A stretch of 64,000 nt of DNA from Escherichia coli (lineage in GTDB: Bacteria; Pseudomonadota; Gammaproteobacteria; Enterobacterales; Enterobacteriaceae), in assembly GCF_003790525.1 (NCBI RefSeq), contig NZ_CP033636.1. One strand, written 5' to 3'. The notes beneath the pieces are model-generated. The model searched no databases. It saw only the letters and a list, made by a program, of their open reading frames with translations, and was not told where the DNA came from. Shown piece by piece: positions 1-56,366 of the stretch. Every line of letters begins with the position of its first letter. Position 1 is the first letter of the stretch. The position numbers and the translations under genes are program-made.

Positions 1-1
1 T

Positions 2-448
2 GCTGCCGGGACCGTCGCGCCAAGCCAGATTCTGCGGAAACTCGCCTCCTATCCGCGGCAGAACGAGCTCGCGACAGCCCTGCGGGAAGTCGGTCGCGTC
101 GAGCGCACCCTGTTCATGATCGACTGGATTCTGGATGCCGAACTCCAACGGCGTGCCCAGATCGGGCTCAACAAAGGCGAAGCTCATCATGCGCTGAAGC
201 GGGCAATCAGCTTCCACCGCCGCGGTGAAATCCGCGACCGTTCCGCCGAAGGCCAGCATTACCGCATCGCCGGCATGAATCTGCTCGCCGCCATCATCAT
301 CTTCTGGAACACCATGAAGCTCGGCGAGGTCGTTGCAAACCAGAAACGCGATGGAAAGCTGCTATCGCCCGATCTCTTGGCCCATGTTTCGCCGCTCGGA
401 TGGGAACACATCAATCTCACCGGAGAATATCGCTGGCCAAAGCCTTAG
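2..448 (+). CDS. tnpA: Tn3-family transposase TnpA, C-terminal fragment (5' part lies outside window); Tn5393-like
   Basis: Frame open from window edge, ends ...[19 protein letters not shown]; same C-terminal motif as the other Tn3-family TnpA copies in this window; stop abuts a Tn5393-type terminal repeat. Confidence 0.8.
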   Translation, partial: AAGTVAPSQILRKLASYPRQNELATALREVGRVERTLFMIDWILDAELQRRAQIGLNKGEAHHALKRAISFHRRGEIRDRSAEGQHYRIAGMNLLAAIIIFWNTMKLGEVVANQKRDGKLLSPDLLAHVSPLGWEHINLTGEYRWPKP

Positions 449-481
449 CGTAGGATTCCGCCCCCTCCCGCAAACGACCCC
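401..481 (-). repeat. Tn5393-type terminal inverted repeat (about 81 bp, 38-bp core 444-481, GGGG terminus at 481)
   Basis: Reverse complement reads GGGGTCGTTTGCGGGAGGGGGCGGAATCCTACGCTAAGGC...; near-identical to the repeat at 2592-2672. Confidence 0.7.
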
Positions 482-1393
482 GTGATGACCCTGCAGGCAT
501 CCCCTGAGACCCGGTTAATGCGCGCCGAGGTGCAGCGGCATTATCCGCACATCTGGCAGGAGCTGGAGGGGCTGGCGCAGGGACTGGAGGCCACTGTTGA
601 TCAGGTCTTTGCCTGGAACTGCCGTGGCGATCTGGTGCGCTCAACGTCGGATGGCTGTACGACGGTGGCCGGGGTAAACGCCGCAGGCGAGCGGATTATC
701 GCGCATAATGAAGACGGTTTTCCTCAGTTACGGGATGAATGCTTGCTGGCTACCATTACTCCGAGTCGCGGTCTGAGCTTTACGAGTTTTGCCTATCCGG
801 GGTCGATTTGCGGCCACACCTTTGCGGTAAATGAAAAAGGTATCGTTAACACGGTGAATAACATCCGTGCAGTGTATCGTCCGCAGGGATTACCGCGTCA
901 GATCCTGGCTCGCGCCTCGCTGAATGCGAACACCCTCGACGAGGCCATCACTATACTTACCGGCCAGCCGCGATCCGGGGCGTTTCACCATACGCTCGGG
1001 CAGCTGGGCGATGCGCGGCTGTTCAGCGTTGAGGCCACCGGTCAAGGCTGTTCCGTTCTACCCCTGACGACGGTAACCGGGCATGCCAACCATCTGGTGC
1101 ATGCGGCACTGGCTGGCGTTGAGCAGATCGTTACCGACAGTTCAGCGTCGCGGCAGTTACGCCTCGTGCAGTGGCGGGAAACGCAACCTCCGTTTGACGC
1201 CGCGGCGGCAAAAACCATTCTCTCAGATACCCATGACGCAGAACTGCCAATTTACCGGCTGGCTGCCGACGATCCGGATGAGGAGAACACCCTCGCCACG
1301 GCAGTTTTCACCCTCGATGCCAACCACGTCAGGTGGCAAATTTTCGACATTAACCGCGACGATGCTAAATTTCATGGAGAAGTGCGTGGGTGA
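482..1393 (+). CDS. Ntn-hydrolase (peptidase C45 / acyl-CoA:6-APA acyltransferase-like) protein, probably 5'-truncated at the transposon end
   Basis: 303-aa ORF starting inside the IR; contains SDGCTTVAG nucleophile-like motif typical of Ntn hydrolases; assignment from motif memory only. Confidence 0.4.
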   Translation: MMTLQASPETRLMRAEVQRHYPHIWQELEGLAQGLEATVDQVFAWNCRGDLVRSTSDGCTTVAGVNAAGERIIAHNEDGFPQLRDECLLATITPSRGLSFTSFAYPGSICGHTFAVNEKGIVNTVNNIRAVYRPQGLPRQILARASLNANTLDEAITILTGQPRSGAFHHTLGQLGDARLFSVEATGQGCSVLPLTTVTGHANHLVHAALAGVEQIVTDSSASRQLRLVQWRETQPPFDAAAAKTILSDTHDAELPIYRLAADDPDEENTLATAVFTLDANHVRWQIFDINRDDAKFHGEVRG

Positions 1394-1546
1394 AATAGCC
1401 GGTCGTCAGTCATAAAGGGCAGGGGAGTACCGTTGGCCCGGCGTTCGATAGTACCGTCCGGATACTGCCAGATATCGGCGTCCAGGGAGATGTCCTGAAG
1501 CGCGGTGTCCGGAATTTCAGGTTTGTGTCTCTACAAAGACTAACTA

Positions 1547-2362
1547 TCAGAAAAACTCATCGAGCATCAAATGAAACTGCAATTTATTCATATCAGGATT
1601 ATCAATACCATATTTTTGAAAAAGCCGTTTCTGTAATGAAGGAGAAAATTCACCGAGGCAGTTCCATAGGATGGCAAGATCCTGGTATCGGTCTGCGATT
1701 CCGACTCGTCCAACATCAATACAACCTATTAATTTCCCCTCGTCAAAAATAAGGTTATCAAGTGAGAAATCACCATGAGTGACGACTGAATCCGGTGAGA
1801 ATGGCAAAAGCTTATGCATTTCTTTCCAGACTTGTTCAACAGGCCAGCCATTACGCTCGTCATCAAAATCACTCGCATCAACCAAACCGTTATTCATTCG
1901 TGATTGCGCCTGAGCGAGACGAAATACGCGATCGCTGTTAAAAGGACAATTACTAACAGGAATCGAATGCAACCGGCGCAGGAACGCTGCCAGCGCATCA
2001 ACAATATTTTCACCTGAATCAGGATATTCTTCTAATACCTGGAATGCTGTTTTCCCGGGGAGCGCAGTGGTGAGTAACCATGCATCATCAGGAGTACGGA
2101 TAAAATGCTTGATGGTCGGAAGAGGCATAAATGCCGTCAGCCAGTTTAGTCTGACCATCTCATCTGTAACATCATTGGCAACGCTACCTTTGCCATGTTT
2201 CAGAAACAACTCTGGCGCATCGGGCTTCCCATACAATCGATAGATTGTCGCACCTGATTGCCCGACATTATCGCGAGCCCATTTATACCCATATAAATCA
2301 GCATCCAGGTTGGAATTTAATCGCGGCCTCGAGCAAGACGTTTCCCGTTGAATATGGCTCAT
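1547..2362 (-). CDS. aph(3')-Ia: aminoglycoside 3'-phosphotransferase APH(3')-Ia (kanamycin/neomycin resistance, Tn903 type)
   Basis: 271-aa translation MSHIQRETSCSRPRLNSNLDADLYGYKWARDNVGQSG... matches the Tn903 kanamycin resistance protein. Confidence 0.95.
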   Translation of the reverse strand: MSHIQRETSCSRPRLNSNLDADLYGYKWARDNVGQSGATIYRLYGKPDAPELFLKHGKGSVANDVTDEMVRLNWLTAFMPLPTIKHFIRTPDDAWLLTTALPGKTAFQVLEEYPDSGENIVDALAAFLRRLHSIPVSNCPFNSDRVFRLAQAQSRMNNGLVDASDFDDERNGWPVEQVWKEMHKLLPFSPDSVVTHGDFSLDNLIFDEGKLIGCIDVGRVGIADRYQDLAILWNCLGEFSPSLQKRLFQKYGIDNPDMNKLQFHLMLDEFF

Positions 2363-2466
2363 AACACCCCTTGTATTACTGTTTATGTAAGCAGACAGTT
2401 TTATTGTTCATGATGATATATTTTTATCTTGTGCAATGTAACATCAGAGATTTTGAGACACAACGT

Positions 2467-2591
2467 GGATTTGTTGAATAAATCGAACTTTTGCTGAGTT
2501 GAAGGATCAGATCACGCATCTTCCCGACAACGCAGACCGTTCCGTGGCAAAGCAAAAGTTCAAAATCACCAACTGGCCCACCTACAATAAA
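2467..2591. mobile_element. IS903 terminal fragment (about 125 bp) upstream of aph(3')-Ia
   Basis: GGATTTGTTGAATAAATCGAACTTTTGCTGAGTTGAAGGATCAGATCACGC... matches IS903 end as found in Tn903; cut off by the Tn5393 IR. Confidence 0.7.
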
Positions 2592-2672
2592 GGGGTCGTT
2601 TGCGGGAGAGGGCGAAATCCTACGCTAAGGCTTTGGCCAACGATATTCTCCGGTAAGATTGATGTGTTCCCA
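2592..2672 (+). repeat. Tn5393 terminal inverted repeat (IRR, about 81 bp) downstream of strB
   Basis: GGGGTCGTTTGCGGGAGAGGGCGAAATCCTACGCTAAGGCTTTGGCCAACGATATTCTCCGG... Confidence 0.8.
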
Positions 2673-2697
2673 GGGGATAGGAGAAGTCGCTTGATAT

Positions 2698-3534
2698 CTA
2701 GTATGACGTCTGTCGCACCTGCTTGATCGCGGCCGCGATAGCTAGATCGCGTTGCTCCTCTTCTCCATCCGCGTTCCAAGCTGCGGAAAGGCACCCATAA
2801 GCGTACGCCTGGTCGAGCAGGCGACGCGGATCGACGTCCAGCGCACGAGAGAATGCGTCCGCCATCTGTGCAATGCGTCTAGGATCGAGACAAAGGTCGT
2901 CTCTGTCAGCCGGATCGTAGAACATATTGGCGGCGCCAAAGCCCACTTCACCGACCAGACCGACGGGATCTATCACCAGCCAGCCGCGACTGGAGAACAT
3001 GATGTTTTCATGATGCAGATCGCCATGTAGCCCACGCAGTTCCGAGGCATTGCTCATCATTTGATCGGCTATAATCGCCGCGTGGACGTAGTCAGTTTGA
3101 CAACCTGCGTTTTGATCATCGCGCGCCCGCTGAAACAAAGCTGCAAAGCGATCCCGGATCGGGAGAAGGGCAGAAGGCAGGGGTTCCTCAGATGCGGCAT
3201 ACAGCTTCGCCATTAGTTCCGCTGCAATTTCGGTCGCCTGGTAGTCGCCGTGCTCGGCAACGATGTGAGAGAGCATTCGCTCCCCGGCATATTCGAGCAA
3301 CATCAGATTGTTCTCACGACCGAGCAACCGGACTGCTCCCCTCCCATTGCGCCATACCAGATAGTCGGCCCCGCGCAGTTCATCAGCAATGTCTTCTATA
3401 GGTTTCAATTCCTTGACGATTGCAGGAGTCCCGTCTGGCAATGAAACTTTCCAAACGAGGCTGGAAAAGGTGTCCGCAATGAGAACAGGTTGCGAAACGT
3501 GCCAATGAGCAGGAAAAACAGGCGGCATGAACAT
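2698..3534 (-). CDS. strB: aminoglycoside 6-phosphotransferase APH(6)-Id (streptomycin resistance)
   Basis: Translation MFMPPVFPAHWHVSQPVLIADTFSSLVWKVSLPDGTPAIVK... (278 aa from internal ATG); overlaps strA stop by 1 nt. Confidence 0.95.
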   Translation of the reverse strand: MFMPPVFPAHWHVSQPVLIADTFSSLVWKVSLPDGTPAIVKELKPIEDIADELRGADYLVWRNGRGAVRLLGRENNLMLLEYAGERMLSHIVAEHGDYQATEIAAELMAKLYAASEEPLPSALLPIRDRFAALFQRARDDQNAGCQTDYVHAAIIADQMMSNASELRGLHGDLHHENIMFSSRGWLVIDPVGLVGEVGFGAANMFYDPADRDDLCLDPRRIAQMADAFSRALDVDPRRLLDQAYAYGCLSAAWNADGEEEQRDLAIAAAIKQVRQTSY

Positions 3535-4337
3535 CAACCCCAAGTCAGAGGGTCCAATCGCAGATAGAAGGCAAGGCGTTCGCGGTCGGGGGCTTCGATC
3601 CCCAATACATTGAATAGGACAGCGAAGGCGCGCTCTGCTTCATCTGGCGCTGCCCAGTTCTCTTCGGCGTTAGCAATCATGAGTGCCAAATCGGCATAGC
3701 GATCTGCTGTTCCGAGCCGCCCAAGGTCGATCAGACCCGTGCATTGAAGAGTTTTAGGGTCCACCATGAAGTTCGGCATGCAGGGATCACCATGGCAAAC
3801 AACCATATCGGTGCGCTCTTGGTCGAGCCGCACCGGTAGCTCTCGTTCGACACGAGCCAAAAGATCGAGCTGCGGCGTACTCTTGTCCTCGTCCGGTAAG
3901 AAGTCGGGATTGACGGCATTGCGGGACACCACATCAACGGCGCGTCCGAACATTCGCGACAGCCTGCGCTCAAACGGACATTGATCAACCGATAGGCTGT
4001 GAACAGCGCCAAGTTGCTGCCCCATTGACGGCCACGCTTTGAGCAAATCCGCTCCAGACAGATCAGCCGCCGGTACTCCCGGAATTGCCGTTATCACCAA
4101 GCATGCACCCTCCTGTTCCTCCTGCCAGTTGATCACCTCGGGGCAAGCCACACCTCGACCTTTGAGCCAAATGAGGCGGTCACGCTCTCCAGCGAGCTCA
4201 CCGCGGCGGGAAGCAGGTGCGATTTTCGCGAAGGCATGCCCGTCACCACGTCGAAAAACAAAATCACCAGATTCTCCGCCTCTGACAGGCAACCAGTCAG
4301 AATGCGATTCACCAAAAAAAATATTAGTTCGATTCAA
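3534..4337 (-). CDS. strA: aminoglycoside 3''-phosphotransferase APH(3'')-Ib (streptomycin resistance), TTG start
   Basis: 267-aa product LNRTNIFFGESHSDWLPVRGGESGDFVFRRGDGHAFAKIAPASRRGELAGERDRLIWLKG... within longer ORF. Confidence 0.95.
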   Translation of the reverse strand: MNRTNIFFGESHSDWLPVRGGESGDFVFRRGDGHAFAKIAPASRRGELAGERDRLIWLKGRGVACPEVINWQEEQEGACLVITAIPGVPAADLSGADLLKAWPSMGQQLGAVHSLSVDQCPFERRLSRMFGRAVDVVSRNAVNPDFLPDEDKSTPQLDLLARVERELPVRLDQERTDMVVCHGDPCMPNFMVDPKTLQCTGLIDLGRLGTADRYADLALMIANAEENWAAPDEAERAFAVLFNVLGIEAPDRERLAFYLRLDPLTWG

Positions 4338-4629
4338 TGGAGGTTCCTTCAGTTTTCTGATGAAGCGCGGAGGTGGCTCAACCTGCGAAAAGAAACGAGT
4401 TGCTATGGACTTGCACCGGTTGTGTTCCGGTCTATCTCTCATTTTAAGCGGCTTTTTTCTCAAATGCCACCGGCGATTTCCAGCCGAGTGTTGAATGTCT
4501 TCGGCGTGGATTATAAAAGCCATTTACCCATATAATGCGCCTACTTATCAGCCTTTGGGACGTTGGGACGGTATTTTTCACTATATACCCCCAAGTTTTT
4601 AGACATGAAAAAAGGGTAATGACTCCAAC

Positions 4630-5133
4630 TTATTGATAGTGTTTTATGTTCAGATAATGCCCGATGACTTTGTCATGCAGCTCCACCGATTTTGAGAACG
4701 ACAGCGACTTCCGTCCCAGCCGTGCCAGGTGCTGCCTCAGATTCAGGTTATGCCGCTCAATTCGCTGCGTATATCGCTTGCTGATTACGTGCAGCTTTCC
4801 CTTCAGGCGGGATTCATACAGCGGCCAGCCATCCGTCATCCATATCACCACGTCAAAGGGTGACAGCAGGCTCATAAGACGCCCCAGCGTCGCCATAGTG
4901 CGTTCACCGAATACGTGCGCAACAACCGTCTTCCGGAGCCTGTCATACGCGTAAAACAGCCAGCGCTGGCGCGATTTAGCCCCGACGTATCCCCACTGTT
5001 CGTCCATTTCCGCGCAGACGATGACGTCACTGCCCGGCTGTATGCGCGAGGTTACCGACTGCGGCCTGAGTTTTTTAAGTGACGTAAAATCGTGTTGAGG
5101 CCAACGCCCATAATGCGGGCTGTTGCCCGGCAT
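4630..5133 (-). CDS. insB: IS1 InsB
   Basis: 167-aa [61 protein letters not shown]... Confidence 0.9.
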
Positions 5134-5327
5134 CCAACGCCATTCATGGCCATATCAATGATTTTCTGGTGCGTACCGGGTTGAGAAGCGGTGTAAGTGA
5201 ACTGCAGTTGCCATGTTTTACGGCAGTGAGAGCAGAGATAGCGCTGATGTCCGGCGGTGCTTTTGCCGTTACGCACCACCCCGTCAGTAGCTGAACAGGA
5301 GGGACAGCTGATAGAAACAGAAGCCAC
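5052..5327 (-). CDS. insA: IS1 InsA
   Basis: 91-aa [46 protein letters not shown]... Confidence 0.9.
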
Positions 5328-5382
5328 TGGAGCACCTCAAAAACACCATCATACACTAAATCAGTAAGTTGGCAGCATCACC

Positions 5383-5561
5383 CGACGCACTTTGCGCCGA
5401 ATAAATACCTGTGACGGAAGATCACTTCGCAGAATAAATAAATCCTGGTGTCCCTGTTGATACCGGGAAGCCCTGGGCCAACTTTTGGCGAAAATGAGAC
5501 GTTGATCGGCACGTAAGAGGTTCCAACTTTCACCATAATGAAATAAGATCACTACCGGGCG
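5383..5561. promoter_or_regulatory. Tn9 catA1 upstream/promoter remnant (cat gene itself absent)
   Basis: ...ACGTAAGAGGTTCCAACTTTCACCATAATGAAATAAGATCACTACCGGGCG matches the region between IS1 and cat in Tn9/pACYC184-type sequences; ends at the IS10 junction. Confidence 0.6.
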
Positions 5562-6120
5562 CTGAGAGATCCCCTCATAATTTCCCCAAAGCGTAACCAT
5601 GTGTGAATAAATTTTGAGCTAGTAGGGTTGCAGCCACGAGTAAGTCTTCCCTTGTTATTGTGTAGCCAGAATGCCGCAAAACTTCCATGCCTAAGCGAAC
5701 TGTTGAGAGTACGTTTCGATTTCTGACTGTGTTAGCCTGGAAGTGCTTGTCCCAACCTTGTTTCTGAGCATGAACGCCCGCAAGCCAACATGTTAGTTGA
5801 AGCATCAGGGCGATTAGCAGCATGATATCAAAACGCTCTGAGCTGCTCGTTCGGCTATGGCGTAGGCCTAGTCCGTAGGCAGGACTTTTCAAGTCTCGGA
5901 AGGTTTCTTCAATCTGCATTCGCTTCGAATAGATATTAACAAGTTGTTTGGGTGTTCGAATTTCAACAGGTAAGTTAGTTGCTAGAACCCATGGCTCCTT
6001 TGCCGACGCTGAGTAGATTTTAGGTGACGGGTGGTGACAATGAGTCCGTGTCGAGCGCTGATTTTTTCGGCCTTTAGAGCGAGATTTATACAATAGAATT
6101 TGGCATGAGATTGGATTGCT
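5562..6120 (-). mobile_element. IS10 fragment (inside end plus 3' part of transposase gene), truncated by IS26
   Basis: CTGAGAGATCCCCTCATAATTTCCCC end; 172-aa ORF 5575-6093 matches IS10 transposase C-terminus (...EETFRDLKSPAYGLGLRHSRTSSSERFDIMLLIALML...). Confidence 0.8.
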
Positions 6121-6940
6121 GGCACTGTTGCAAAGTTAGCGATGAGGCAGCCTTTTGTCTTATTCAAAGGCCTTACATTTCAAAAACTCTGCTTACCAGG
6201 CGCATTTCGCCCAGGGGATCACCATAATAAAATGCTGAGGCCTGGCCTTTGCGTAGTGCACGCATCACCTCAATACCTTTGATGGTGGCGTAAGCCGTCT
6301 TCATGGATTTAAATCCCAGCGTGGCGCCGATTATCCGTTTCAGTTTGCCATGATCGCATTCAATCACGTTGTTCCGGTACTTAATCTGTCGGTGTTCAAC
6401 GTCAGACGGGCACCGGCCTTCGCGTTTGAGCAGAGCAAGCGCGCGACCATAGGCGGGCGCTTTATCCGTGTTGATGAATCGCGGGATCTGCCACTTCTTC
6501 ACGTTGTTGAGGATTTTACCCAGAAACCGGTATGCAGCTTTGCTGTTACGACGGGAGGAGAGATAAAAATCGACAGTGCGGCCCCGGCTGTCGACGGCCC
6601 GGTACAGATACGCCCAGCGGCCATTGACCTTCACGTAGGTTTCATCCATGTGCCACGGGCAAAGATCGGAAGGGTTACGCCAGTACCAGCGCAGCCGTTT
6701 TTCCATTTCAGGCGCATAACGCTGAACCCAGCGGTAAATCGTGGAGTGATCGACATTCACTCCGCGTTCAGCCAGCATCTCCTGCAGCTCACGGTAACTG
6801 ATGCCGTATTTGCAGTACCAGCGTACGGCCCACAGAATGATGTCACGCTGAAAATGCCGGCCTTTGAATGGGTTCATGTGCAGCTCCATCAGCAAAAGGG
6901 GATGATAAGTTTATCACCACCGACTATTTGCAACAGTGCC
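6121..6940 (-). mobile_element. IS26 copy 1 (820 bp)
   Basis: 14-bp terminal IRs GGCACTGTTGCAAA / TTTGCAACAGTGCC at exact 820-bp spacing; flanks ggattgct / acttgacc (no target duplication). Confidence 0.95.
6173..6877 (-). CDS. tnpA: IS26 transposase Tnp26 (IS6 family), G184 reference form
   Basis: 234-aa [35 protein letters not shown]... with ...[10 protein letters not shown]... Confidence 0.95.
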   Translation of the reverse strand: MNPFKGRHFQRDIILWAVRWYCKYGISYRELQEMLAERGVNVDHSTIYRWVQRYAPEMEKRLRWYWRNPSDLCPWHMDETYVKVNGRWAYLYRAVDSRGRTVDFYLSSRRNSKAAYRFLGKILNNVKKWQIPRFINTDKAPAYGRALALLKREGRCPSDVEHRQIKYRNNVIECDHGKLKRIIGATLGFKSMKTAYATIKGIEVMRALRKGQASAFYYGDPLGEMRLVSRVFEM

Positions 6941-6984
6941 ACTTGACCTGATAGTTTGGCTGTGAGCAATTATGTGCTTAGTGC
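6941..6984 (-). other. First ~44 bp of class 1 integron 3'-conserved segment, truncated by IS26
   Basis: Reverse complement GCACTAAGCACATAATTGCTCACAGCCAAACTATCAGGTCAAGT follows a GTTAGAT cassette boundary (6985-6991). Confidence 0.6.
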
Positions 6985-7029
6985 ATCTAACGTCAAAATC
7001 AGCGGCGCGTTTTTATGCGTCCGCTGGAT

Positions 7030-7851
7030 TTACTTGTTGTGCGGCGTCGCAGACTCATTGAACAACCTTTTTGCCTGCGCAATTACAGTTCTCGGAAGCT
7101 CGATATTCAGAGGTTCTGTCACGCTCTTGAACAATTCGAGACTCCACGTCCACGTTTGATGATAGGCTGCACATAGTGCTCTTGGTTCTGCACTGCTTGT
7201 GCATGCCAGATAGCGATTATACGAGTCCTCCGAGATATCCTTTTCGAGCGCGCGTGAAGGTGTCGGCCAGTGGTCTGTTGCCCCTTCGTGGAGTCGAACC
7301 AGCTTGAGTAGGTTTTCATGTGCTTTGCTGAGCAAAGCCCAGGCGCGAGCGTACTCTCCCCGATTTAAAAGATTGGCCCCAAAGAGCATCAGGCTGATGA
7401 GGTTCAACACAAGCCCTTCCACCAGCGGCGCGCCTTCACGTATCGGGGGACCGCCCACGAGAGCGCTTGCGTACCTTGACAACTCTCCTGATCGGTCCAA
7501 CAAAACAGCCGCCTCAAGCGAGGGAAACCACCCATAGCCTTGCCAAGTGGAAATGACCGGTATGTCCGATTTTCGCATGAAATGGAATTCACCGCGAATG
7601 CCGTTTTCAAAAAGTGCGGTGTGGTGGCCGAAGTCGTCCGGAAAGTAAGCAGCAACCGGACTTACGGCATTAAGCCACGAGCGCTGATCGAAATTTTCAA
7701 AATGGTCATCCTGGATGAACACTGCGAATTCGATATCAGAGAACTCGTCACCCTCTCCGATAGCAAATGAGCCGAACATCAATGCCGCGATTATTCGTGC
7801 ATCCTCATGACAACCTTCCTTGAAGAGTTCGATCATTTTCAGTTGAAGCAT
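7030..7851 (-). CDS. lnu(F): lincosamide nucleotidyltransferase Lnu(F) (gene cassette 2 of integron 1)
   Basis: 273-aa MLQLKMIELFKEGCHEDARIIAALMFGSFAIGEGDEFSDIEFAVFIQDD...; cassette context after aadA2 attC. Confidence 0.85.
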   Translation of the reverse strand: MLQLKMIELFKEGCHEDARIIAALMFGSFAIGEGDEFSDIEFAVFIQDDHFENFDQRSWLNAVSPVAAYFPDDFGHHTALFENGIRGEFHFMRKSDIPVISTWQGYGWFPSLEAAVLLDRSGELSRYASALVGGPPIREGAPLVEGLVLNLISLMLFGANLLNRGEYARAWALLSKAHENLLKLVRLHEGATDHWPTPSRALEKDISEDSYNRYLACTSSAEPRALCAAYHQTWTWSLELFKSVTEPLNIELPRTVIAQAKRLFNESATPHNK

Positions 7852-7923
7852 AGAAATATCCTTTTATTGAAGCCACAGATTATGAGGAAAGGTATACGCA
7901 GATTTTTGTTTTTTTTCGTCAGC

Positions 7924-7983
7924 ACAACGCCGGAGTTAAGCCGCCGCGCGTAGCGCGGTCGGCTTGAACGAATTGTTAGACAT
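7924..7983 (-). other. attC (59-be) of aadA2 cassette
   Basis: Reverse complement GTCTAACAATTCGTTCAAGCCGACCGCGCTACGCGCGGCGGCTTAACTCCGGCGTT, imperfect palindrome typical of aadA attC. Confidence 0.6.
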
Positions 7984-8774
7984 TATTTGCCGATTACCTT
8001 GGTGATCTCGCCTTTCACGTAGTGGACAAATTCTTCCAACTGATCTGCGCGCGAGGCCAAGCGATCTTCTTCTTGTCCAAGATAAGCCTGTCTAGCTTCA
8101 AGTATGACGGGCTGATACTGGGCCGGCAGGCGCTCCATTGCCCAGTCGGCAGCGACATCCTTCGGCGCGATTTTGCCGGTTACTGCGCTGTACCAAATGC
8201 GGGACAACGTAAGCACTACATTTCGCTCATCGCCAGCCCAGTCGGGCGGCGAGTTCCATAGCGTTAAGGTTTCATTTAGCGCCTCAAATAGATCCTGTTC
8301 AGGAACCGGATCAAAGAGTTCCTCCGCCGCTGGACCTACCAAGGCAACGCTATGTTCTCTTGCTTTTGTCAGCAAGATAGCCAGATCAATGTCGATCGTG
8401 GCTGGCTCGAAGATACCTGCAAGAATGTCATTGCGCTGCCATTCTCCAAATTGCAGTTCGCGCTTAGCTGGATAACGCCACGGAATGATGTCGTCGTGCA
8501 CAACAATGGTGACTTCTACAGCGCGGAGAATCTCGCTCTCTCCAGGGGAAGCCGAAGTTTCCAAAAGGTCGTTGATCAAAGCTCGCCGCGTTGTTTCATC
8601 AAGCCTTACGGTCACCGTAACCAGCAAATCAATATCGCTGTATGGCTTCAGGCCGCCATCCACTGCGGAGCCGTACAAATGCACGGCCAGCAACGTTGAT
8701 TCCAGATGGCGCTCAATGACGCTTAGCACCTCTGATAGTTGGTTCGAAATTTCGATGGTCACCGCTACCCTCAT
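7983..8774 (-). CDS. aadA2: aminoglycoside (3'') adenylyltransferase AadA2 (streptomycin/spectinomycin), cassette 1 of integron 1
   Basis: MRVAVTIEISNQLSEVLSVIERHLESTLLAVHLYGSAVDGGLKPYSDIDLLVTVTVRLDE...; start chosen at internal ATG of longer ORF that reads through attI1. Confidence 0.9.
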   Translation of the reverse strand: MRVAVTIEISNQLSEVLSVIERHLESTLLAVHLYGSAVDGGLKPYSDIDLLVTVTVRLDETTRRALINDLLETSASPGESEILRAVEVTIVVHDDIIPWRYPAKRELQFGEWQRNDILAGIFEPATIDIDLAILLTKAREHSVALVGPAAEELFDPVPEQDLFEALNETLTLWNSPPDWAGDERNVVLTLSRIWYSAVTGKIAPKDVAADWAMERLPAQYQPVILEARQAYLGQEEDRLASRADQLEEFVHYVKGEITKVIGK

Positions 8775-8922
8775 GATGTCTAACTTTGTTTTAGGGCGAC
8801 TGCCCTGCTGCGTAACATCGTTGCTGCTCCATAACATCAAACATCGACCCACGGCGTAACGCGCTTGCTGCTTGGATGCCCGAGGCATAGACTGTACCCC
8901 AAAAAAACAGTCATAACAAGCC
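8775..8922. other. attI1 recombination region of integron 1 (approximate)
   Basis: Lies between intI1 start (8923) and first cassette; contains the ORF-11-like leader translated as ...PRASKQQARYAVGRCLMLWSSNDVTQQGSRPKTKL. Confidence 0.55.
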
Positions 8923-9720
8923 ATGAAAACCGCCACTGCGCCGTTACCACCGCTGCGTTCGGTCAAGGTTCTGGACCAGTTGCGTGAGCGCATACGCTAC
9001 TTGCATTACAGCTTACGAACCGAACAGGCTTATGTCCACTGGGTTCGTGCCTTCATCCGTTTCCACGGTGTGCGTCACCCGGCAACCTTGGGCAGCAGCG
9101 AAGTCGAGGCATTTCTGTCCTGGCTGGCGAACGAGCGCAAGGTTTCGGTCTCCACGCATCGTCAGGCATTGGCGGCCTTGCTGTTCTTCTACGGCAAGGT
9201 GCTGTGCACGGATCTGCCCTGGCTTCAGGAGATCGGAAGACCTCGGCCGTCGCGGCGCTTGCCGGTGGTGCTGACCCCGGATGAAGTGGTTCGCATCCTC
9301 GGTTTTCTGGAAGGCGAGCATCGTTTGTTCGCCCAGCTTCTGTATGGAACGGGCATGCGGATCAGTGAGGGTTTGCAACTGCGGGTCAAGGATCTGGATT
9401 TCGATCACGGCACGATCATCGTGCGGGAGGGCAAGGGCTCCAAGGATCGGGCCTTGATGTTACCCGAGAGCTTGGCACCCAGCCTGCGCGAGCAGCTGTC
9501 GCGTGCACGGGCATGGTGGCTGAAGGACCAGGCCGAGGGCCGCAGCGGCGTTGCGCTTCCCGACGCCCTTGAGCGGAAGTATCCGCGCGCCGGGCATTCC
9601 TGGCCGTGGTTCTGGGTTTTTGCGCAGCACACGCATTCGACCGATCCACGGAGCGGTGTCGTGCGTCGCCATCACATGTATGACCAGACCTTTCAGCGCG
9701 CCTTCAAACGTGCCGTAGAA
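8923..9720 (+). pseudogene. intI1: class 1 integron integrase intI1, 3'-truncated by IS26 (about 266 of 337 codons retained)
   Basis: [44 protein letters not shown]... reading frame runs into IS26 IR at 9721. Confidence 0.9.
9010..9038 (-). promoter_or_regulatory. Pc cassette promoter, weak PcW configuration (-35 TGGACA, 17-bp spacer, -10 TAAGCT)
   Basis: Reverse strand reads TGGACATAAGCCTGTTCGGTTCGTAAGCT inside intI1 5' region. Confidence 0.6.
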
Positions 9721-10540
9721 GGCACTGTTGCAAAGTTAGCGATGAGGCAGCCTTTTGTCTTATTCAAAGGCCTTACATTTCAAAAACTCTGCTTACCAGG
9801 CGCATTTCGCCCAGGGGATCACCATAATAAAATGCTGAGGCCTGGCCTTTGCGTAGTGCACGCATCACCTCAATACCTTTGATGGTGGCGTAAGCCGTCT
9901 TCATGGATTTAAATCCCAGCGTGGCGCCGATTATCCGTTTCAGTTTGCCATGATCGCATTCAATCACGTTGTTCCGGTACTTAATCTGTCGGTGTTCAAC
10001 GTCAGACGGGCACCGGCCTTCGCGTTTGAGCAGAGCAAGCGCGCGACCATAGGCGGGCGCTTTATCCGTGTTGATGAATCGCGGGATCTGCCACTTCTTC
10101 ACGTTGTTGAGGATTTTACCCAGAAACCGGTATGCAGCTTTGCTGTTACGACGGGAGGAGAGATAAAAATCGACAGTGCGGCCCCGGCTGTCGACGGCCC
10201 GGTACAGATACGCCCAGCGGCCATTGACCTTCACGTAGGTTTCATCCATGTGCCACGGGCAAAGATCGGAAGGGTTACGCCAGTACCAGCGCAGCCGTTT
10301 TTCCATTTCAGGCGCATAACGCTGAACCCAGCGGTAAATCGTGGAGTGATCGACATTCACTCCGCGTTCAGCCAGCATCTCCTGCAGCTCACGGTAACTG
10401 ATGCCGTATTTGCAGTACCAGCGTACGGCCCACAGAATGATGTCACGCTGAAAATGCCGGCCTTTGAATGGGTTCATGTGCAGCTCCATCAGCAAAAGGG
10501 GATGATAAGTTTATCACCACCGACTATTTGCAACAGTGCC
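9721..10540 (-). mobile_element. IS26 copy 2 (820 bp)
   Basis: Exact IS26 IRs; flanks ccgtagaa / attctcac (no target duplication); truncates intI1. Confidence 0.95.
9773..10477 (-). CDS. tnpA: IS26 transposase Tnp26, G184 form
   Basis: Identical 234-aa product to copy 1. Confidence 0.95.
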
Positions 10541-10829
10541 ATTCTCACATGCGATCTCGAGTAGCCAGTTGTGGAAAACCGACATAAACATCCCCTGTTA
10601 CCCTGAAACTCTACTCACCATTTTTTCATAATTATATACAAACAGCCAGAAAGGCTGTTACAGGCGATTTGATCTGCAACCTATTGGTTAAATTAATGTA
10701 TCAAAAACGATGGTTTCTGTGACACATCCCTATAAGCAGTTGCCTATACAATAAAACGCTCTCCGGCTGTAACAAAACCCGTTACAGTATCAATACAACA
10801 AAAACGATGTAACAAAATAGGGTGGCAAA

Positions 10830-10976
10830 ATGATAATCGGCTATGCGCGTAAATCGACACATCTTCAGGATGTAACGCATCAGGTTGATGAACTGACAAA
10901 AGCGGGTTGCGAGCAAATCTATCATGAACAGATCTCACGCGGCGGCACTAAACGCGCCAAAAATGGTGCCCCGGAA
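10830..10976 (+). pseudogene. serine recombinase (resolvase/invertase family) 5' fragment, truncated by IS26
   Basis: MIIGYARKSTHLQDVTHQVDELTKAGCEQIYHEQISRGG... resembles N-terminus of Hin/Gin/TnpR-type recombinases; upstream region carries repeated GTTACAG/TGTAACA motifs. Confidence 0.6.
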
Positions 10977-12193
<1,217 letters not shown>

Positions 12194-15630: not shown

Positions 15631-16450
15631 GGCACTGTTGCAAATAGTCGGTGGTGATAAACTTATCATCCCCTTTTGCTGATGGAGCTGCACATGAACC
15701 CATTCAAAGGCCGGCATTTTCAGCGTGACATCATTCTGTGGGCCGTACGCTGGTACTGCAAATACGGCATCAGTTACCGTGAGCTGCAGGAGATGCTGGC
15801 TGAACGCGGAGTGAATGTCGATCACTCCACGATTTACCGCTGGGTTCAGCGTTATGCGCCTGAAATGGAAAAACGGCTGCGCTGGTACTGGCGTAACCCT
15901 TCCGATCTTTGCCCGTGGCACATGGATGAAACCTACGTGAAGGTCAATGGCCGCTGGGCGTATCTGTACCGGGCCGTCGACAGCCGGGGCCGCACTGTCG
16001 ATTTTTATCTCTCCTCCCGTCGTAACAGCAAAGCTGCATACCGGTTTCTGGGTAAAATCCTCAACAACGTGAAGAAGTGGCAGATCCCACGATTCATCAA
16101 CACGGATAAAGCGCCCGCCTATGGTCGCGCGCTTGCTCTGCTCAAACGCGAAGGCCGGTGCCCGTCTGACGTTGAACACCGACAGATTAAGTACCGGAAC
16201 AACGTGATTGAATGCGATCATGGCAAACTGAAACGGATAATCAACGCCACGCTGGGATTTAAATCCATGAAGACGGCTTACGCCACCATCAAAGGTATTG
16301 AGGTGATGCGTGCACTACGCAAAGGCCAGGCCTCAGCATTTTATTATGGTGATCCCCTGGGCGAAATGCGCCTGGTAAGCAGAGTTTTTGAAATGTAAGG
16401 CCTTTGAATAAGACAAAAGGCTGCCTCATCGCTAACTTTGCAACAGTGCC
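15631..16450 (+). mobile_element. IS26 copy 4 (820 bp), G184N variant type, flanked by 8-bp direct repeat CTTCTGGT
   Basis: Exact IS26 IRs; 15623-15630 and 16451-16458 both CTTCTGGT (target site duplication of a simple insertion). Confidence 0.95.
15694..16398 (+). CDS. tnpA: IS26 transposase, G184N variant
   Basis: ...[15 protein letters not shown]... Confidence 0.9.
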   Translation: MNPFKGRHFQRDIILWAVRWYCKYGISYRELQEMLAERGVNVDHSTIYRWVQRYAPEMEKRLRWYWRNPSDLCPWHMDETYVKVNGRWAYLYRAVDSRGRTVDFYLSSRRNSKAAYRFLGKILNNVKKWQIPRFINTDKAPAYGRALALLKREGRCPSDVEHRQIKYRNNVIECDHGKLKRIINATLGFKSMKTAYATIKGIEVMRALRKGQASAFYYGDPLGEMRLVSRVFEM

Positions 16451-20121: not shown

Positions 20122-20144
20122 TTTTCGATATCCAAACTGACCCC
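20107..20144 (-). repeat. 38-bp Tn3-family terminal inverted repeat belonging to the tnpA at 17134-20121
   Basis: Reverse complement GGGGTCAGTTTGGATATCGAAAATTATTGTACGTTAAG; differs from the Tn3, Tn21, Tn1721 and Tn5393 repeats present elsewhere in the window. Confidence 0.75.
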
Positions 20145-20403
20145 GAATACAAGGACAATGCCGGTACCGCCTGATTACTTCTGGCGTCGTCTACAATGTT
20201 ACTCCAGGCATATGCTGCGTCGTCCGGGGTTTGTTTTGGATCTATGTCCAATGTCGGCCAGACGTGGCCCTGATGATTCTTGCCCTTTGTACAGGAAGTG
20301 ATTAAGTGTACTGAGCGTTCAGAGAACATTATCTTCCTTACATACCCATAGAACAGCTTTCTAAGAACGGTGGGCTCGGCTGAAAATTACAAATCAGCCC
20401 CTT

Positions 20404-20766
20404 TCACGGCATCATTTTGATTCTTCGCGTCTGCCCCAGTAAGATGACCGGTTTTCTGCATGACAGTGTTATTCCTAACAAACGCAACACAAAACCACGC
20501 CAGCCAGAGCAAATTTTTTCATTTGCTGCGTAAAGCCTATTGTTTTCTCTTTTAAGCTTCGCCCACTCGTTACAGAGGGTAACATCATCAAGCGCTGTTA
20601 TATGCTTCGCCTCACCTTCGACGATAACGGTATGGATACCGTATGCTGTAAATCTCATACTATTTTCCAGAACCCAGTTGCGGTATTCGTCGAGTCCACC
20701 TTCGGAACCGGTAGCTCTGCGCCACATTTCAATTTGCTTGTGTGATGGGTCAAGTGTACTTGTCAT
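20404..20766 (-). CDS. hypothetical protein (120 aa)
   Basis: ORF only; no recognisable motif. Confidence 0.3.
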   Translation of the reverse strand: MTSTLDPSHKQIEMWRRATGSEGGLDEYRNWVLENSMRFTAYGIHTVIVEGEAKHITALDDVTLCNEWAKLKRENNRLYAANEKICSGWRGFVLRLLGITLSCRKPVILLGQTRRIKMMP

Positions 20767-21408
20767 TGAAGCCTCGTCTCAGCGATAACGCTTGAAATAG
20801 CCCGCTTTGGTCATCATGAAATTAGCCATCTGACTGGCGATTTGATTGTATCTTACTCATAGTGCCCTACCTATAGGTTAAAAAGGGGCATTTTCGCTTT
20901 ATAGCGTGTTCAGCAGCATCAATCCTCCCAAGAAAGGCTGGCTTATTAAGCCGGTCCATCATTTTCTGTATATCTCTCATCAATTTTTATATCCGCCCTG
21001 GAGTGCACCGTTCAAGCACACCGATTAGGCAGATAGTCACTAGTTAACTCTTTACTAGTGACTAAATTCCATTGATATACGTGACAACGTCACGTCATGA
21101 AAGCTTTTAAATGCCTATTTTTCATACAATGGGATTTAATTAGGAGTAAATCCCATAGGCTTACATAAGGATGACAATTAAAAGCGTTAAATATCAACCA
21201 GATAGAATGATTACCCCCAATTAATGGGCTCATCACATTATTTCACTGGCTGGGGTTATTGCTGGCATATCTGAAAGTGCTAATATGTTAGTCATTAGTA
21301 ATTAGTAAAGCCTTTACTAAACGCGTTTCTACGTAATTTCTATAGGTTTTATAGTGTCCTACCTTTGCTCAAATCAAAATGTTCTGACATACCAAAATGG
21401 AGTGTAAA

Positions 21409-25278: not shown

Positions 25279-26706
25279 TCAGCTGACTTCGTCGTAAAAC
25301 TGCCGCAAGCGCTGGGAGGCTGCAAATTCAATTCGTGACTTCAGCAGTTTGGCGACGGCCGCAAAGACATCAACGACCACGGAGTTCCCAAACTGTCTGT
25401 AAGCCTGTGTATTGGACACAGGGATACGGAAAACACTTTCCCCGGGTTTATCGAAGCCCATTAGCCTGCTGCATTCACGTGGCGTTAGCATGCGTGGCCG
25501 ACGGTCCATGTTGTATGTGTTATGGAAATCAGTTTCTCCCAGTTCATGAGACCAGCCCCGATCAATAAGAATTTCAGATCCGTCTTTCATATAGCGGCTT
25601 GAGAGGGTTCTGGTGACACTATTAACATTGGAAGGATCTACTAGTCCAAAACCAAAACCATTGCCTTTTGCCGCATGTTTCTTTGCATAGTTGTATAAGT
25701 ACTCCCAGAGTTTAGGGGAGAGGATGTATTTACTATCTACGCTCGGATCCAGTAAATCTGAGAGAGAAGGGCGCTTGTCCGGATAAAAGTCTTTAATGTC
25801 TCTCAGAGTAAAACCGTCTTTCAGACGTAGGTCGCGGCGAAAACCAATAAGGACGATACGTTCACGGTGCTGGGGTCGGAAATGACGGCCATCGATGACT
25901 TTAGGATCATCCGCGCCCGTGCTTTCGCTGTTTGCGACGTCGTAGCCAAGCTCATCGAGCGTTTTCATGATGATGTTAAAGGTATTACCCTTATCGTGAC
26001 TCTTCAGATTTTTTACGTTTTCCAGAACAAAAATTGCAGGTTGTTTTGCCCGGATGATCCTGGCCACATCAAAGAAGAGCGTACCCTGAGTGTCGCACTC
26101 GAAACCGTGTTTGCGACCCATAGAGTTCTTTTTACTGACACCGGCGATGCTGAATGGCTGGCATGGAAATCCCGCAAGAAGAACATCATGATCCGGGATA
26201 GAGGCATCGATAAATTTGTATGCCTCGTCATCAGTAACCTCGGGCCGGTTGCTAAGAGTGATGTCACGGATGTCTGAATTGAAGCGGTGCTCGTTCTCAT
26301 CGCAATACCAGTTCGCCCGGTAAGTACGGCTGGAATAAGTATTCCATTCGCTCGTGAAAAGACATTTACCACCGATGGCATCAAATCCGCTTCGCAGTCC
26401 ACCTATCCCTGCAAACAGATCGATAAAGCTAAAGTGCCTGTCCTCATAATCAGCAGGTCGTGAAGGTATTAAAGTCTGTAGATAGCGTCCATCTGCGATA
26501 CTCAGCTCACAATGCTCAGGTATGCATGTAACCTGACGTTTAAGGGATGCACGGGACCAATTACTGCCATTTTCATCATTTAATACCTGAGCCAGATATT
26601 TCAGGTCATAAATGGTCGAAGCTGTTAACAAAGTTTTGTGGATCAGAGATGGTGTTTTATCCACATCATTCAGGTCTGTCTCAAGATCATGAGTGTAACG
26701 TTTCAT
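25279..26706 (-). CDS. DNA (cytosine-5)-methyltransferase with ~100-aa N-terminal extension
   Basis: Motif [16 protein letters not shown], motif [13 protein letters not shown], motif VI ENVKNL, motif X QFGNSV; ATG at 26706 chosen (longer ORF to 26748 uses a GTG). Confidence 0.85.
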
Positions 26707-40908: not shown

Positions 40909-40928
40909 CCACATTTTTGCAACAGTGC
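40909..40928 (+). repeat. orphan IS6-family (IS26-like) terminal repeat
   Basis: CACATTTTTGCAACAGTGCC, ending in the exact 14-bp IS26 IR TTTGCAACAGTGCC with diverged subterminal sequence; no adjacent IS body. Confidence 0.4.
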
Positions 40929-41176
40929 CTTATAAATGGCAGCCTTATGTTTACTTGCCAAGATGGGCTACCATATGATGTTTTATACTGAGCAATATTA
41001 ATATTATCTTTAATGGAAAAATTAAGCCCACTAAGTGACCCACTGCTATATGGCTCTATTGTGAAGACGCCTGAGGGTAAAAATTTATACATGGTTGTCC
41101 CTATGTCTATTATTGCAAGGTTGACAATATTATTCGTTTTATAAATTTGAGCGTTTAAAATCACACATCAAAGCAA

Positions 41177-55547: not shown

Positions 55548-56366
55548 GGCACTGTTGCAAATAACCACGAATGGTAAGCTGAAGACTGTTTTAGCTAAAG
55601 GTGCAGCATATGAATCCTTTCCATGGTCGGCATTTTCAGGGCGAAATCATTCTTTGGGCTGTGCGCTGGTATTGTAAATATGGCATTAGCTATCGTGAAC
55701 TGCAGGAAATGCTGGCCGAACGGGGTGTGAATGTTGATCACACGACTATTTACCGTTGGGTTCAACGTTATGCTCCTGAAATAGAAAAACGTTTACGCTG
55801 GTATTGGCGTAATCCTACAGATCTGAGCTCGTGGCATATTGATGAAACCTATGTAAAAGTGAATGGACGATGGTCTTATCTGTATCGTGCAGTCGATCAA
55901 CGTGGCGATACCATTGATTTTTATCTTTCTTCTAGACGTAATACCAAATCAGCATATTGTTTTCTTGGAAAAATTTTAAATAATGTGAAGAAGTGGCAAA
56001 TTCCACAAGTGATCAACACGGATAAAGCACCCACATATGGACGTGCTTTATCACGGTTAAAACGGGAAGGTAAATGTCCACCAGACCTTGAGCACAGGCA
56101 GATTAAGTATAAAAATAACGTGATTGAATGTGATCATGGCAAGCTAAAGCGGATCATCAGGGCCACATTAGGATTCAAATCTATGAAGACGGCTTATGCC
56201 ACAATTAAAGGTATTGAAGTCATGCGTGCACTACGTAAAGGACAAGCATCGTCATTTTATTATGGTCAGCCTCAGGGTGAAGTGTGTCTAATCAACAGGG
56301 TTTTCGGTCTCTAAGTACTTTTTAAAGGGAACATCATCGACTCAAATCTCTATTTGCAACAGTGCC
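55548..56366 (+). mobile_element. IS6-family element, IS1006/IS1008-like (819 bp), sharing the IS26 14-bp terminal repeat
   Basis: Ends GGCACTGTTGCAAATAACC... / ...TTTGCAACAGTGCC; internal sequence and transposase clearly diverged from IS26. Confidence 0.8.
55610..56314 (+). CDS. tnpA: IS1006-like transposase (IS6 family)
   Basis: [105 protein letters not shown]... Confidence 0.85.
   Translation: MNPFHGRHFQGEIILWAVRWYCKYGISYRELQEMLAERGVNVDHTTIYRWVQRYAPEIEKRLRWYWRNPTDLSSWHIDETYVKVNGRWSYLYRAVDQRGDTIDFYLSSRRNTKSAYCFLGKILNNVKKWQIPQVINTDKAPTYGRALSRLKREGKCPPDLEHRQIKYKNNVIECDHGKLKRIIRATLGFKSMKTAYATIKGIEVMRALRKGQASSFYYGQPQGEVCLINRVFGL

Follow-up and report, generated by a model that had tools for sequence, protein, structure and literature searches.

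An IS26-bounded relic in an IncHI2-type multiresistance region of Escherichia coli is a fragment of IncN plasmid backbone with a predicted res site

The 436-bp segment that lies between two IS26 copies in the stretch of Escherichia coli DNA analyzed here (64,000 nucleotides of contig NZ_CP033636.1, referred to as the window) is, to near certainty, a piece of IncN plasmid backbone. The best explanation of the segment is that IS26 has cut an IncN fragment, consisting of the start of ecoRII, a res site and the start of the resolvase gene resP, and that this fragment now resides in an IncHI2-type multiresistance region. Taken together with the ResP/res mechanism proposed below, this explanation is very probably correct. 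The relic itself is already known material, in that it is an ordinary piece of IncN backbone.

The boundaries of the segment are set by the 14-bp terminal repeat of IS26 (GGCACTGTTGCAAA), which occurs 17 times in the window. Complete 820-bp copies placed by these repeats include those at 6121-6940, 9721-10540 and 10977-11796. Since the terminal repeats fix copies 2 and 3 of the element, the gap between them is 10541-10976, or 436 bp, and the initial annotation, which had described a 436-bp relic between these two copies, is borne out. The flanking elements are as follows.

9721..10540, minus strand: IS26 copy 2, with canonical Tnp26; left boundary of the relic, placed by terminal repeats and open reading frame (ORF)
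10977..11796, minus strand: IS26 copy 3, the variant with Tnp26 G184N; right boundary of the relic

Copy 2 is identical in sequence to copy 1, and copy 3 differs from copy 2 at three nucleotides, its product being Tnp26 G184N. The G184N variant has been described as more active. Downstream of copy 3, from 11797, are a truncated Tn2/Tn3 tnpR and then blaTEM-1. In both flanking copies tnp26 is on the minus strand, and they are therefore direct repeats. The 8-mers on the two sides of copy 2 (CCGTAGAA and ATTCTCAC) are unlike, as are those on the two sides of copy 3 (CCCCGGAA and GGTGGAGG), so that neither copy has a target-site duplication. Given the differing IS26 variants and the lack of target-site duplications, each of the two junctions arose in an IS26 event of its own. 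As a short passenger between directly oriented IS26 copies, the relic resembles an IS26 pseudo-compound transposon or translocatable unit. All of its flanking 8-mers differ, and an 8-bp target-site duplication is found neither around the whole structure nor around each IS, which is typical of IS26-driven reshuffling. Unlike the usual IS26-bounded segment, the passenger is a 436-bp non-resistance scar, and the copies on its two sides are different variants (canonical and G184N).

Other IS26-related sequences occur in the window. For example, CTTCTGGT is found on either side of the IS26 at 15631-16450; this clean 8-bp target-site duplication serves as a positive control. A lone terminal repeat at 40916-40929, with no partner at the expected distance, presumably marks a truncated IS26. 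An 819-bp element at 55548-56366 has perfect IS26-type 14-bp terminal repeats and is internally only ~75.6% identical to IS26; it is a different IS6-family member.

The parent of the relic, which had been left for a BLAST search to identify, is the IncN backbone, specifically resP and its upstream region. By megablast against 72,556 plasmids, 436 of 436 bp match IncN plasmids, including pRSB201 and pYLPI24b, at 100% identity, and 315 PLSDB records cover at least 80% of the segment. In pRSB201 (replicon IncN), the genes under the match are annotated as resP (resolvase) and ecoRII; the ecoRII coding sequence ends at locus position 4045 and the match starts at 4001. The segment is thus both identical to and collinear with the ecoRII-resP region of typed IncN plasmids. 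It is made up of 45 bp of ecoRII, a 244-bp intergenic region and 147 bp of resP.

10541..10585, minus strand: codons 1-15 of ecoRII (MSVFHNWLLEIACEN), the 5′ end of the gene, cut off by IS26; 100% identical to pRSB201
10586..10829, no strand: divergent ecoRII-resP intergenic region, 244 bp; 100% identical to IncN plasmids
10830..10976, plus strand: codons 1-49 of the 198 in resP, the 5′ end of the gene, cut off by IS26; recognized by ORF and Pfam match

The start of resP had been recognized at the outset, and the 5′ end of ecoRII in the first 45 bp had been overlooked. No further pieces of resP or ecoRII were found within the window. A stretch at 25343-26427 resembles the IncN gene dcm (cytosine methyltransferase), at ~68% identity, and is unrelated to the relic.

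The ATG at 10830 opens 49 codons (MIIGYARKSTHLQD; MIIGYARKST...NGAPE) ahead of the IS26 at 10977, and the frame continues into the element.

10830..11138, plus strand: 102-aa fusion ORF, with 49 aa of ResP and 53 aa from IS26

The 49-aa fragment matches the Pfam Resolvase family (PF00239) with an E value of 1.8e-5 and 25.3 bits (cut-off 23.3), covering profile positions 1-48 of 145 only. It contains the catalytic-serine motif YARKST, and thus shows the N-terminal catalytic domain and serine motif of a small serine recombinase. The full-length parent, ResP, is a 198-aa protein (WP_000583524.1, the same accession in R46 and pYLPI24b) with a Pfam Resolvase domain (PF00239) followed by HTH_7 (PF02796). 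Among solved structures its closest match is Gin invertase (E 6e-39), with gamma-delta resolvase at E 2.6e-18 and Sin at E 1e-8. The ORF, the PF00239 match and the Gin match all agree with the earlier description of the fragment as the first 49 codons of a Hin/Gin-like serine recombinase. Compared with the intact IncN system, the window keeps 49 of 198 codons, in an IncHI2-type region between IS26 copies. Because resP ends after codon 49, ~75% of the catalytic domain, the E-helix and the DNA-binding domain, with its C-terminal helix-turn-helix, are missing from the window, and the 102-aa fusion ORF is not expected to be a functional recombinase. A sigma-70 scan found no convincing resP promoter, giving two matches against 1.1 expected, one of them over the start codon. 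A search of genome contigs with ResP returned only three loci, among them a 277-bp contig and one distant homologue (L009). In R46, ResP corresponds to Uvp1, a reported resolvase (Tosini 1998, as cited in PMC12217951).

Upstream of resP, GTTACAG occurs at 10657 (plus), 10767 (minus) and 10781 (plus), and TGTAACA at 10656 (minus), 10768 (plus) and 10808 (plus). These occurrences fall in four distinct places, 10655-10663, 10767-10774, 10781-10787 and 10808-10814. The initial annotation had counted at least four copies of GTTACAG or its complement spread over ~250 bp; the count stands, and the spread shrinks to 160 bp for exact copies, or ~220 bp if a degenerate TGTTACC at 10596 is included. It could be argued that such repetition is a functionless product of chance, since the region is rich in A and T, and since TGTAACA so nearly equals its reverse complement that counting on both strands exaggerates its number. 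This is scarcely credible given that the TGTAAC core is present five times in the 436 bp, where 0.09 occurrences would be expected at the frequency seen in the rest of the window (Poisson P ~5e-8), that the cluster occurs only once in the complete 38.9-kb IncN plasmid pYLPI24b, and that the positions and spacing of the motifs are conserved where their surroundings have diverged to ~30% identity. One further TGTAAC, the fifth, lies inside resP at 10871-10876 (codons 14-16); the type-B gene described below does not keep it, and it is therefore probably due to chance.

The motif copies were originally proposed to form a recombination site, either res or an inversion site, orphaned by IS26. Such a site is supported by the comparisons below, and its likely crossover point is a 28-bp dyad at 10697-10724 that the initial annotation had missed. 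With a score of 39.1, this is the best dyad in the whole 64-kb window, where the next best scores 15.9. It has a 12 + 4 + 12 bp layout with a central AT at 10710-10711, and its half-sites are of the form TGTATC/TGTCAC. When a matrix is built from the half-sites of this dyad only, the next best half-sites in the segment are those at 10768 (plus), 10808 (plus) and 10794 (plus). Because the matrix ranks the flagged repeats next, the repeats and the dyad share, by this measure, one recognition element, TGT-A/C-A/T-C followed by an A-tract. The predicted array and its surroundings comprise the following features.

10642..10658, no strand: 17-bp palindrome ACAGCCAGAAAGGCTGT; overlaps the first motif copy
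10697..10724, no strand: predicted res site I (crossover), TGTATCAAAAAC-GATG-GTTTCTGTGACA; best dyad, conserved
10725..10767, no strand: 43-bp spacer; sequence ~30% identical between types, length invariant
10768..10786, no strand: predicted accessory site II, 19-bp dyad TGTAACAAAACCCGTTACA (TGTAACAAAACYCGTTACA); conserved in all lineages
10794..10805, plus strand: predicted accessory half-site IIIa, TACAACAAAAAC; score 10.4
10808..10819, plus strand: predicted accessory half-site IIIb, TGTAACAAAATA; score 10.7, fourth motif copy

Site II coincides with motif copies 2 and 3. Its left half scores 14.1 with the matrix trained on site I half-sites alone, and its right arm has only the TGTAAC core in common with the half-site. 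Half-site IIIb ends ~10 bp upstream of the resP ribosome-binding region. Three of the four motif copies are therefore predicted accessory half-sites. The remaining one (CTGTTACAG, 10655-10663) is of uncertain role: taken as a full half-site of 12 bp, its score is below 6, and the left arm of the segment (10541-10716) is identical in both IncN types, which leaves conservation at 10655-10663 without an independent lineage.

The array was compared with that of several relatives, namely type-B IncN plasmids (pKPC-56a and pYD626E, 84% identical at the DNA level over the initial 147 bp of resP and 91.5% identical in the protein), an IncI plasmid fragment, the IncF plasmid OZ038807, and two 35-kb IncN-like plasmids with resolvases just 60% identical to ResP. 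The order of a 28-bp dyad, a 19-bp dyad and two direct half-sites is kept in four diverged lineages, represented by five sequences, and the distance between the centres of sites I and II is 66.5 bp in all five. Half-sites IIIa and IIIb are direct repeats with 14-bp spacing in every lineage, IIIa taking the form TGTAACAAWAAC in the others. In the 60% lineage, the 28-bp dyad reads TGTCTCACAAAC-GATG-ATTTTTGTTACA. A second tblastn search, with the 60%-identical resolvase, revealed no additional lineages. The segment thus holds a ~28-bp crossover-like site with inverted 12-bp half-sites and a central palindromic dinucleotide, together with accessory sites in cis at a fixed distance between that site and the recombinase gene, as in a res site. 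The assignment of subsites is purely comparative; for the native IncN res site, the literature searches turned up neither binding nor recombination experiments.

Some of the relatives have additional features around the array. In the IncF and 35-kb IncN-like plasmids, two extra 19-bp palindromes, GTATCATCAWTGTTGATAC and GTGTCAACAWTGTTGAYAC, are located upstream of the 28-bp dyad (L006, 1437-1501; L010, 1000-1063; L011, 999-1063), and in L006 the array is separated from the resolvase gene by a VirB9-like ORF.

Two kinds of natural rearrangement fall in or beside the predicted site. Firstly, identity between window-type and type-B sequences is 100% through 10716, is first broken at 10717, and stands at 30% from 10725 onward; in pPNUSAS074905_1, 176 of 176 bp to the left of the break, including ecoRII, are identical. 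The identity break between the plasmid types falls within the dyad, at 10712-10717. This is the pattern that would be expected from site-specific exchange at the dyad centre between diverged res sites. An endpoint of homologous recombination could in principle also have fallen in the dyad by chance; the 13-bp break interval amounts to ~4-5% of the 290-bp upstream region. In the IncF lineage, the flanks have diverged (61% and 26%), and the dyad is one position off that of the window and identical to the type-B dyad.

Secondly, class 1 integrons have inserted beside or within the array. In the pKPC-56a type, the IRi end of a class 1 integron abuts the equivalent of 10641, which is 56 bp to the left of the dyad, and in R46 (L016, 3746-3836) In1 has its IRi end against 10740, a position that separates the 28-bp dyad from the 19-bp one. 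Tn402-type elements target res sites, with the insertion in SGI1 located between subsites I and II (PMC12217951), and both SGI1 and Tn1696 have Tn402-type elements inside a res site (PMC12217951; PMC5371602). Two independent integron insertions within 100 bp fit a res site.

These observations bear on whether the TGTAAC repeats might be mere operators for the resP and ecoRII promoters, bound by ResP or another regulator and with no role in recombination, so that just the 28-bp dyad, or nothing in the segment, would be a recombination site. The repeats do lie within 62 bp of the resP start codon, in the expected promoter zone, and the 19-bp dyad and direct repeats are unlike the geometry of Tn3 sites II and III. 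An operator would nevertheless not need to keep an exact distance to the dyad across a non-conserved spacer, as is seen in four lineages. The repeats also have the half-site of the crossover-like dyad, and the array is flanked by integron insertions typical of res. In known resolvase systems such as Tn3 and gamma-delta, the accessory sites act in regulation as well as recombination. A purely regulatory role for the repeats is thus unlikely.

A different reading takes the relic as the remnant of a Hin/Gin-type DNA-inversion switch, with the repeats as hix- or gix-like inversion sites. Gin is the best sequence relative of the protein, well ahead of gamma-delta resolvase (E 6e-39 against 2.6e-18), and the gene is labelled 'DNA-invertase' in some database records. 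The 28-bp dyad also resembles gix and hix, and its layout is that of the 26-bp gix sites of phage Mu. When gix sites were taken directly from the Mu genome (TTATCCAAAACC-TC-GGTTTACAGGAA), the inner 26 bp of the dyad were identical to gixL at 16 of 26 positions. Such a gix-like dyad fits the Gin-like protein, and the 44%-identical homologue from a deltaproteobacterial MAG (L009) has the same AAACGATGGTTT core upstream of its gene. Inversion, however, calls for two inverted crossover sites on one replicon, whereas the complete plasmid pYLPI24b, with an intact gene, has a single dyad: the next best candidate scores 14.1 against 39.1, and neither strand of its 38.9 kb has another sequence that matches at 19 or more of the 28 positions. 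There is, unlike in Hin and Gin systems, one site per replicon and no invertible segment. Hin and Gin systems also rely on a remote Fis-bound enhancer, whereas the IncN array has its accessory half-sites in cis at conserved, fixed distances, a resolvase-like architecture. The IncN central dinucleotide, unlike that of Hin/Gin sites, is a palindromic AT, which suits resolution. Finally, the R46 protein has been reported to catalyze resolution (PMC12217951). An inversion switch is accordingly most improbable. With a single dyad, conserved accessory sites in cis and reported resolution activity, the parent is probably a plasmid multimer-resolution system with an invertase-like enzyme, and the original proposal of a recombination site orphaned by IS26 is supported, as res rather than as an inversion site.

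The predicted IncN site shares several properties with Tn3 and gamma-delta res, including a site I that spans 28 bp and has inverted half-sites of 12 bp around a central AT, accessory sites located between it and the gene for the recombinase, use as a target by Tn402-type integrons, and natural hybrid sites attributable to exchange at site I. It differs from them in other respects. The IncN protein is Gin-like rather than TnpR-like, and its half-site is TGTAWCAAAAAC, whereas that of Tn3 and gamma-delta is of the TGTCYRTTA type. The centres of sites I and II are 66.5 bp apart in IncN, as opposed to 53 bp in gamma-delta. In addition, site II of IncN is a 19-bp dyad, much shorter than any Tn3 or gamma-delta accessory site, and site III is a pair of direct repeats, whereas Tn3 and gamma-delta have inverted accessory sites of 34 and 25 bp. 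In having an accessory site composed of the direct repeats IIIa and IIIb, spaced at 14 bp, the IncN array recalls the Sin/beta group, since site II of Sin consists of direct repeats. Unlike Sin and beta, the IncN array has three subsites rather than two, and the proteins are distantly related (Sin E 1e-8).

In the mechanism proposed for the parent system, ResP dimers would bind the 28-bp hix/gix-like dyad, and strands would be cut and exchanged at its central AT. ResP would also bind the accessory half-sites, with their TGTAAC and A-tract, in the 10768-10786 dyad and the 10794-10819 direct repeats. In a plasmid dimer, a pair of res sites in direct repeat would then synapse by way of the accessory sites, with resolution to monomers as the outcome. 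The same accessory sites, which adjoin the resP ribosome-binding region, would probably also repress resP. From the comparisons above we infer the identity of the binding protein, the exact crossover point and the autoregulation.

The plasmid R46 bears on this mechanism. The window is 100% identical to IncN backbones, and the protein of its parent is that of R46, which has a window-type resP gene and an identical ResP. Everything to the left of 10740 is absent from R46, however, and no similar 28-bp dyad was found anywhere in the plasmid, yet Uvp1-dependent resolution is reported for R46, with boxes I and II placed within the integron 5′-conserved segment (Tosini 1998, as given in PMC12217951). 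A search for a surrogate site I at the junction of In1 and the backbone in R46 gave weak scores only. Either R46 uses a weak surrogate crossover site, or the published or the present assignment is incomplete, and the 28-bp dyad is perhaps not the only or the true crossover site. It is mainly because R46 is reported to resolve without the dyad that the mechanistic part of the explanation is held with moderate confidence. The relic in the window keeps a more complete predicted res than R46 does.

A second resolvase gene, of the Tn3 type (MRLFGYARVSTSQQ...), is present in R46 (L016) at 20135-20850, with a classical gamma-delta-like res (CGTCCGAAATATTATAAATTCTCGGACA) at ~20800-20830. This Tn3-type TnpR, rather than ResP, may be the 'per' system of the older literature.

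The origin of the relic can be followed through its junctions. The IncN plasmid pYLPI24b (from a pig in Cuba) is 99.9% identical to the window over 7510-10976, and the two diverge exactly at the start of IS26 copy 3. This shared stretch runs from the aadA22 cassette region of an lnu(F)-aadA22 integron through a truncated intI1 and IS26 to truncated ecoRII, res and resP. In PLSDB, 29 records have the exact IS26|ecoRII junction, pYLPI24b among them, and 26, all of them 223-372 kb in size, have the exact resP|IS26 junction. The closest of these 26, pMCR1_025943, is typed as IncHI2A + IncN and is 99.98% identical to window positions 1-11796. From the shared junctions, we infer that a pYLPI24b-like IncN plasmid would first have carried an lnu(F)-aadA22 integron followed by IS26 and, joined to it, truncated ecoRII with res and resP, and that a second IS26 (G184N), linked to the truncated tnpR and blaTEM-1, would then have cut resP after codon 49. 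The complementary junction, between IS26 and resP codon 50, was not found in the window's plasmid lineage. An IS26|resP codon-50 junction is seen only in two unrelated plasmids, pOW1E2a (L012, 2486-2510) and NZ_CP139490.1, where it exactly complements the codon-49 junction, with zero overlap against the 8 bp expected from one IS26 event.

In its present state, the predicted res (10697-10819) is whole in the window. Since resP is truncated and the window has no other copy of it, the site appears to be an intact but orphaned res that should be inert by itself. Activity in trans, through the ResP of a co-resident IncN plasmid, is conceivable. A stronger version of this idea, put forward tentatively and thought somewhat doubtful, is that the relic preserves a complete native res, maybe of an undescribed hybrid architecture (a gix-like dyad at the 66.5-bp distance from a site II of 19 bp, with direct repeats as site III), and that ResP supplied in trans could make it a live site. 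If so, the relic could fuse IncN and IncHI2 plasmids at res, and it could draw Tn402-type 'res-hunter' integrons into the multiresistance region.

Within the window, the relic is of little importance, being a non-functional scar that is identical in at least 26 sequenced large plasmids, and two papers on IncHI2 multiresistance regions make no mention of it. Its practical use is as a lineage marker, as the IS26 junctions and the lnu(F)-aadA22-IS26 context tie the region to a pYLPI24b-like IncN ancestor. A by-product of modest specialist interest is the comparative model of the native IncN ResP res, a site that seems not yet to have been defined by experiment, and this model turns the focus on R46: the enzyme was studied in that plasmid, from which the predicted crossover site is absent.
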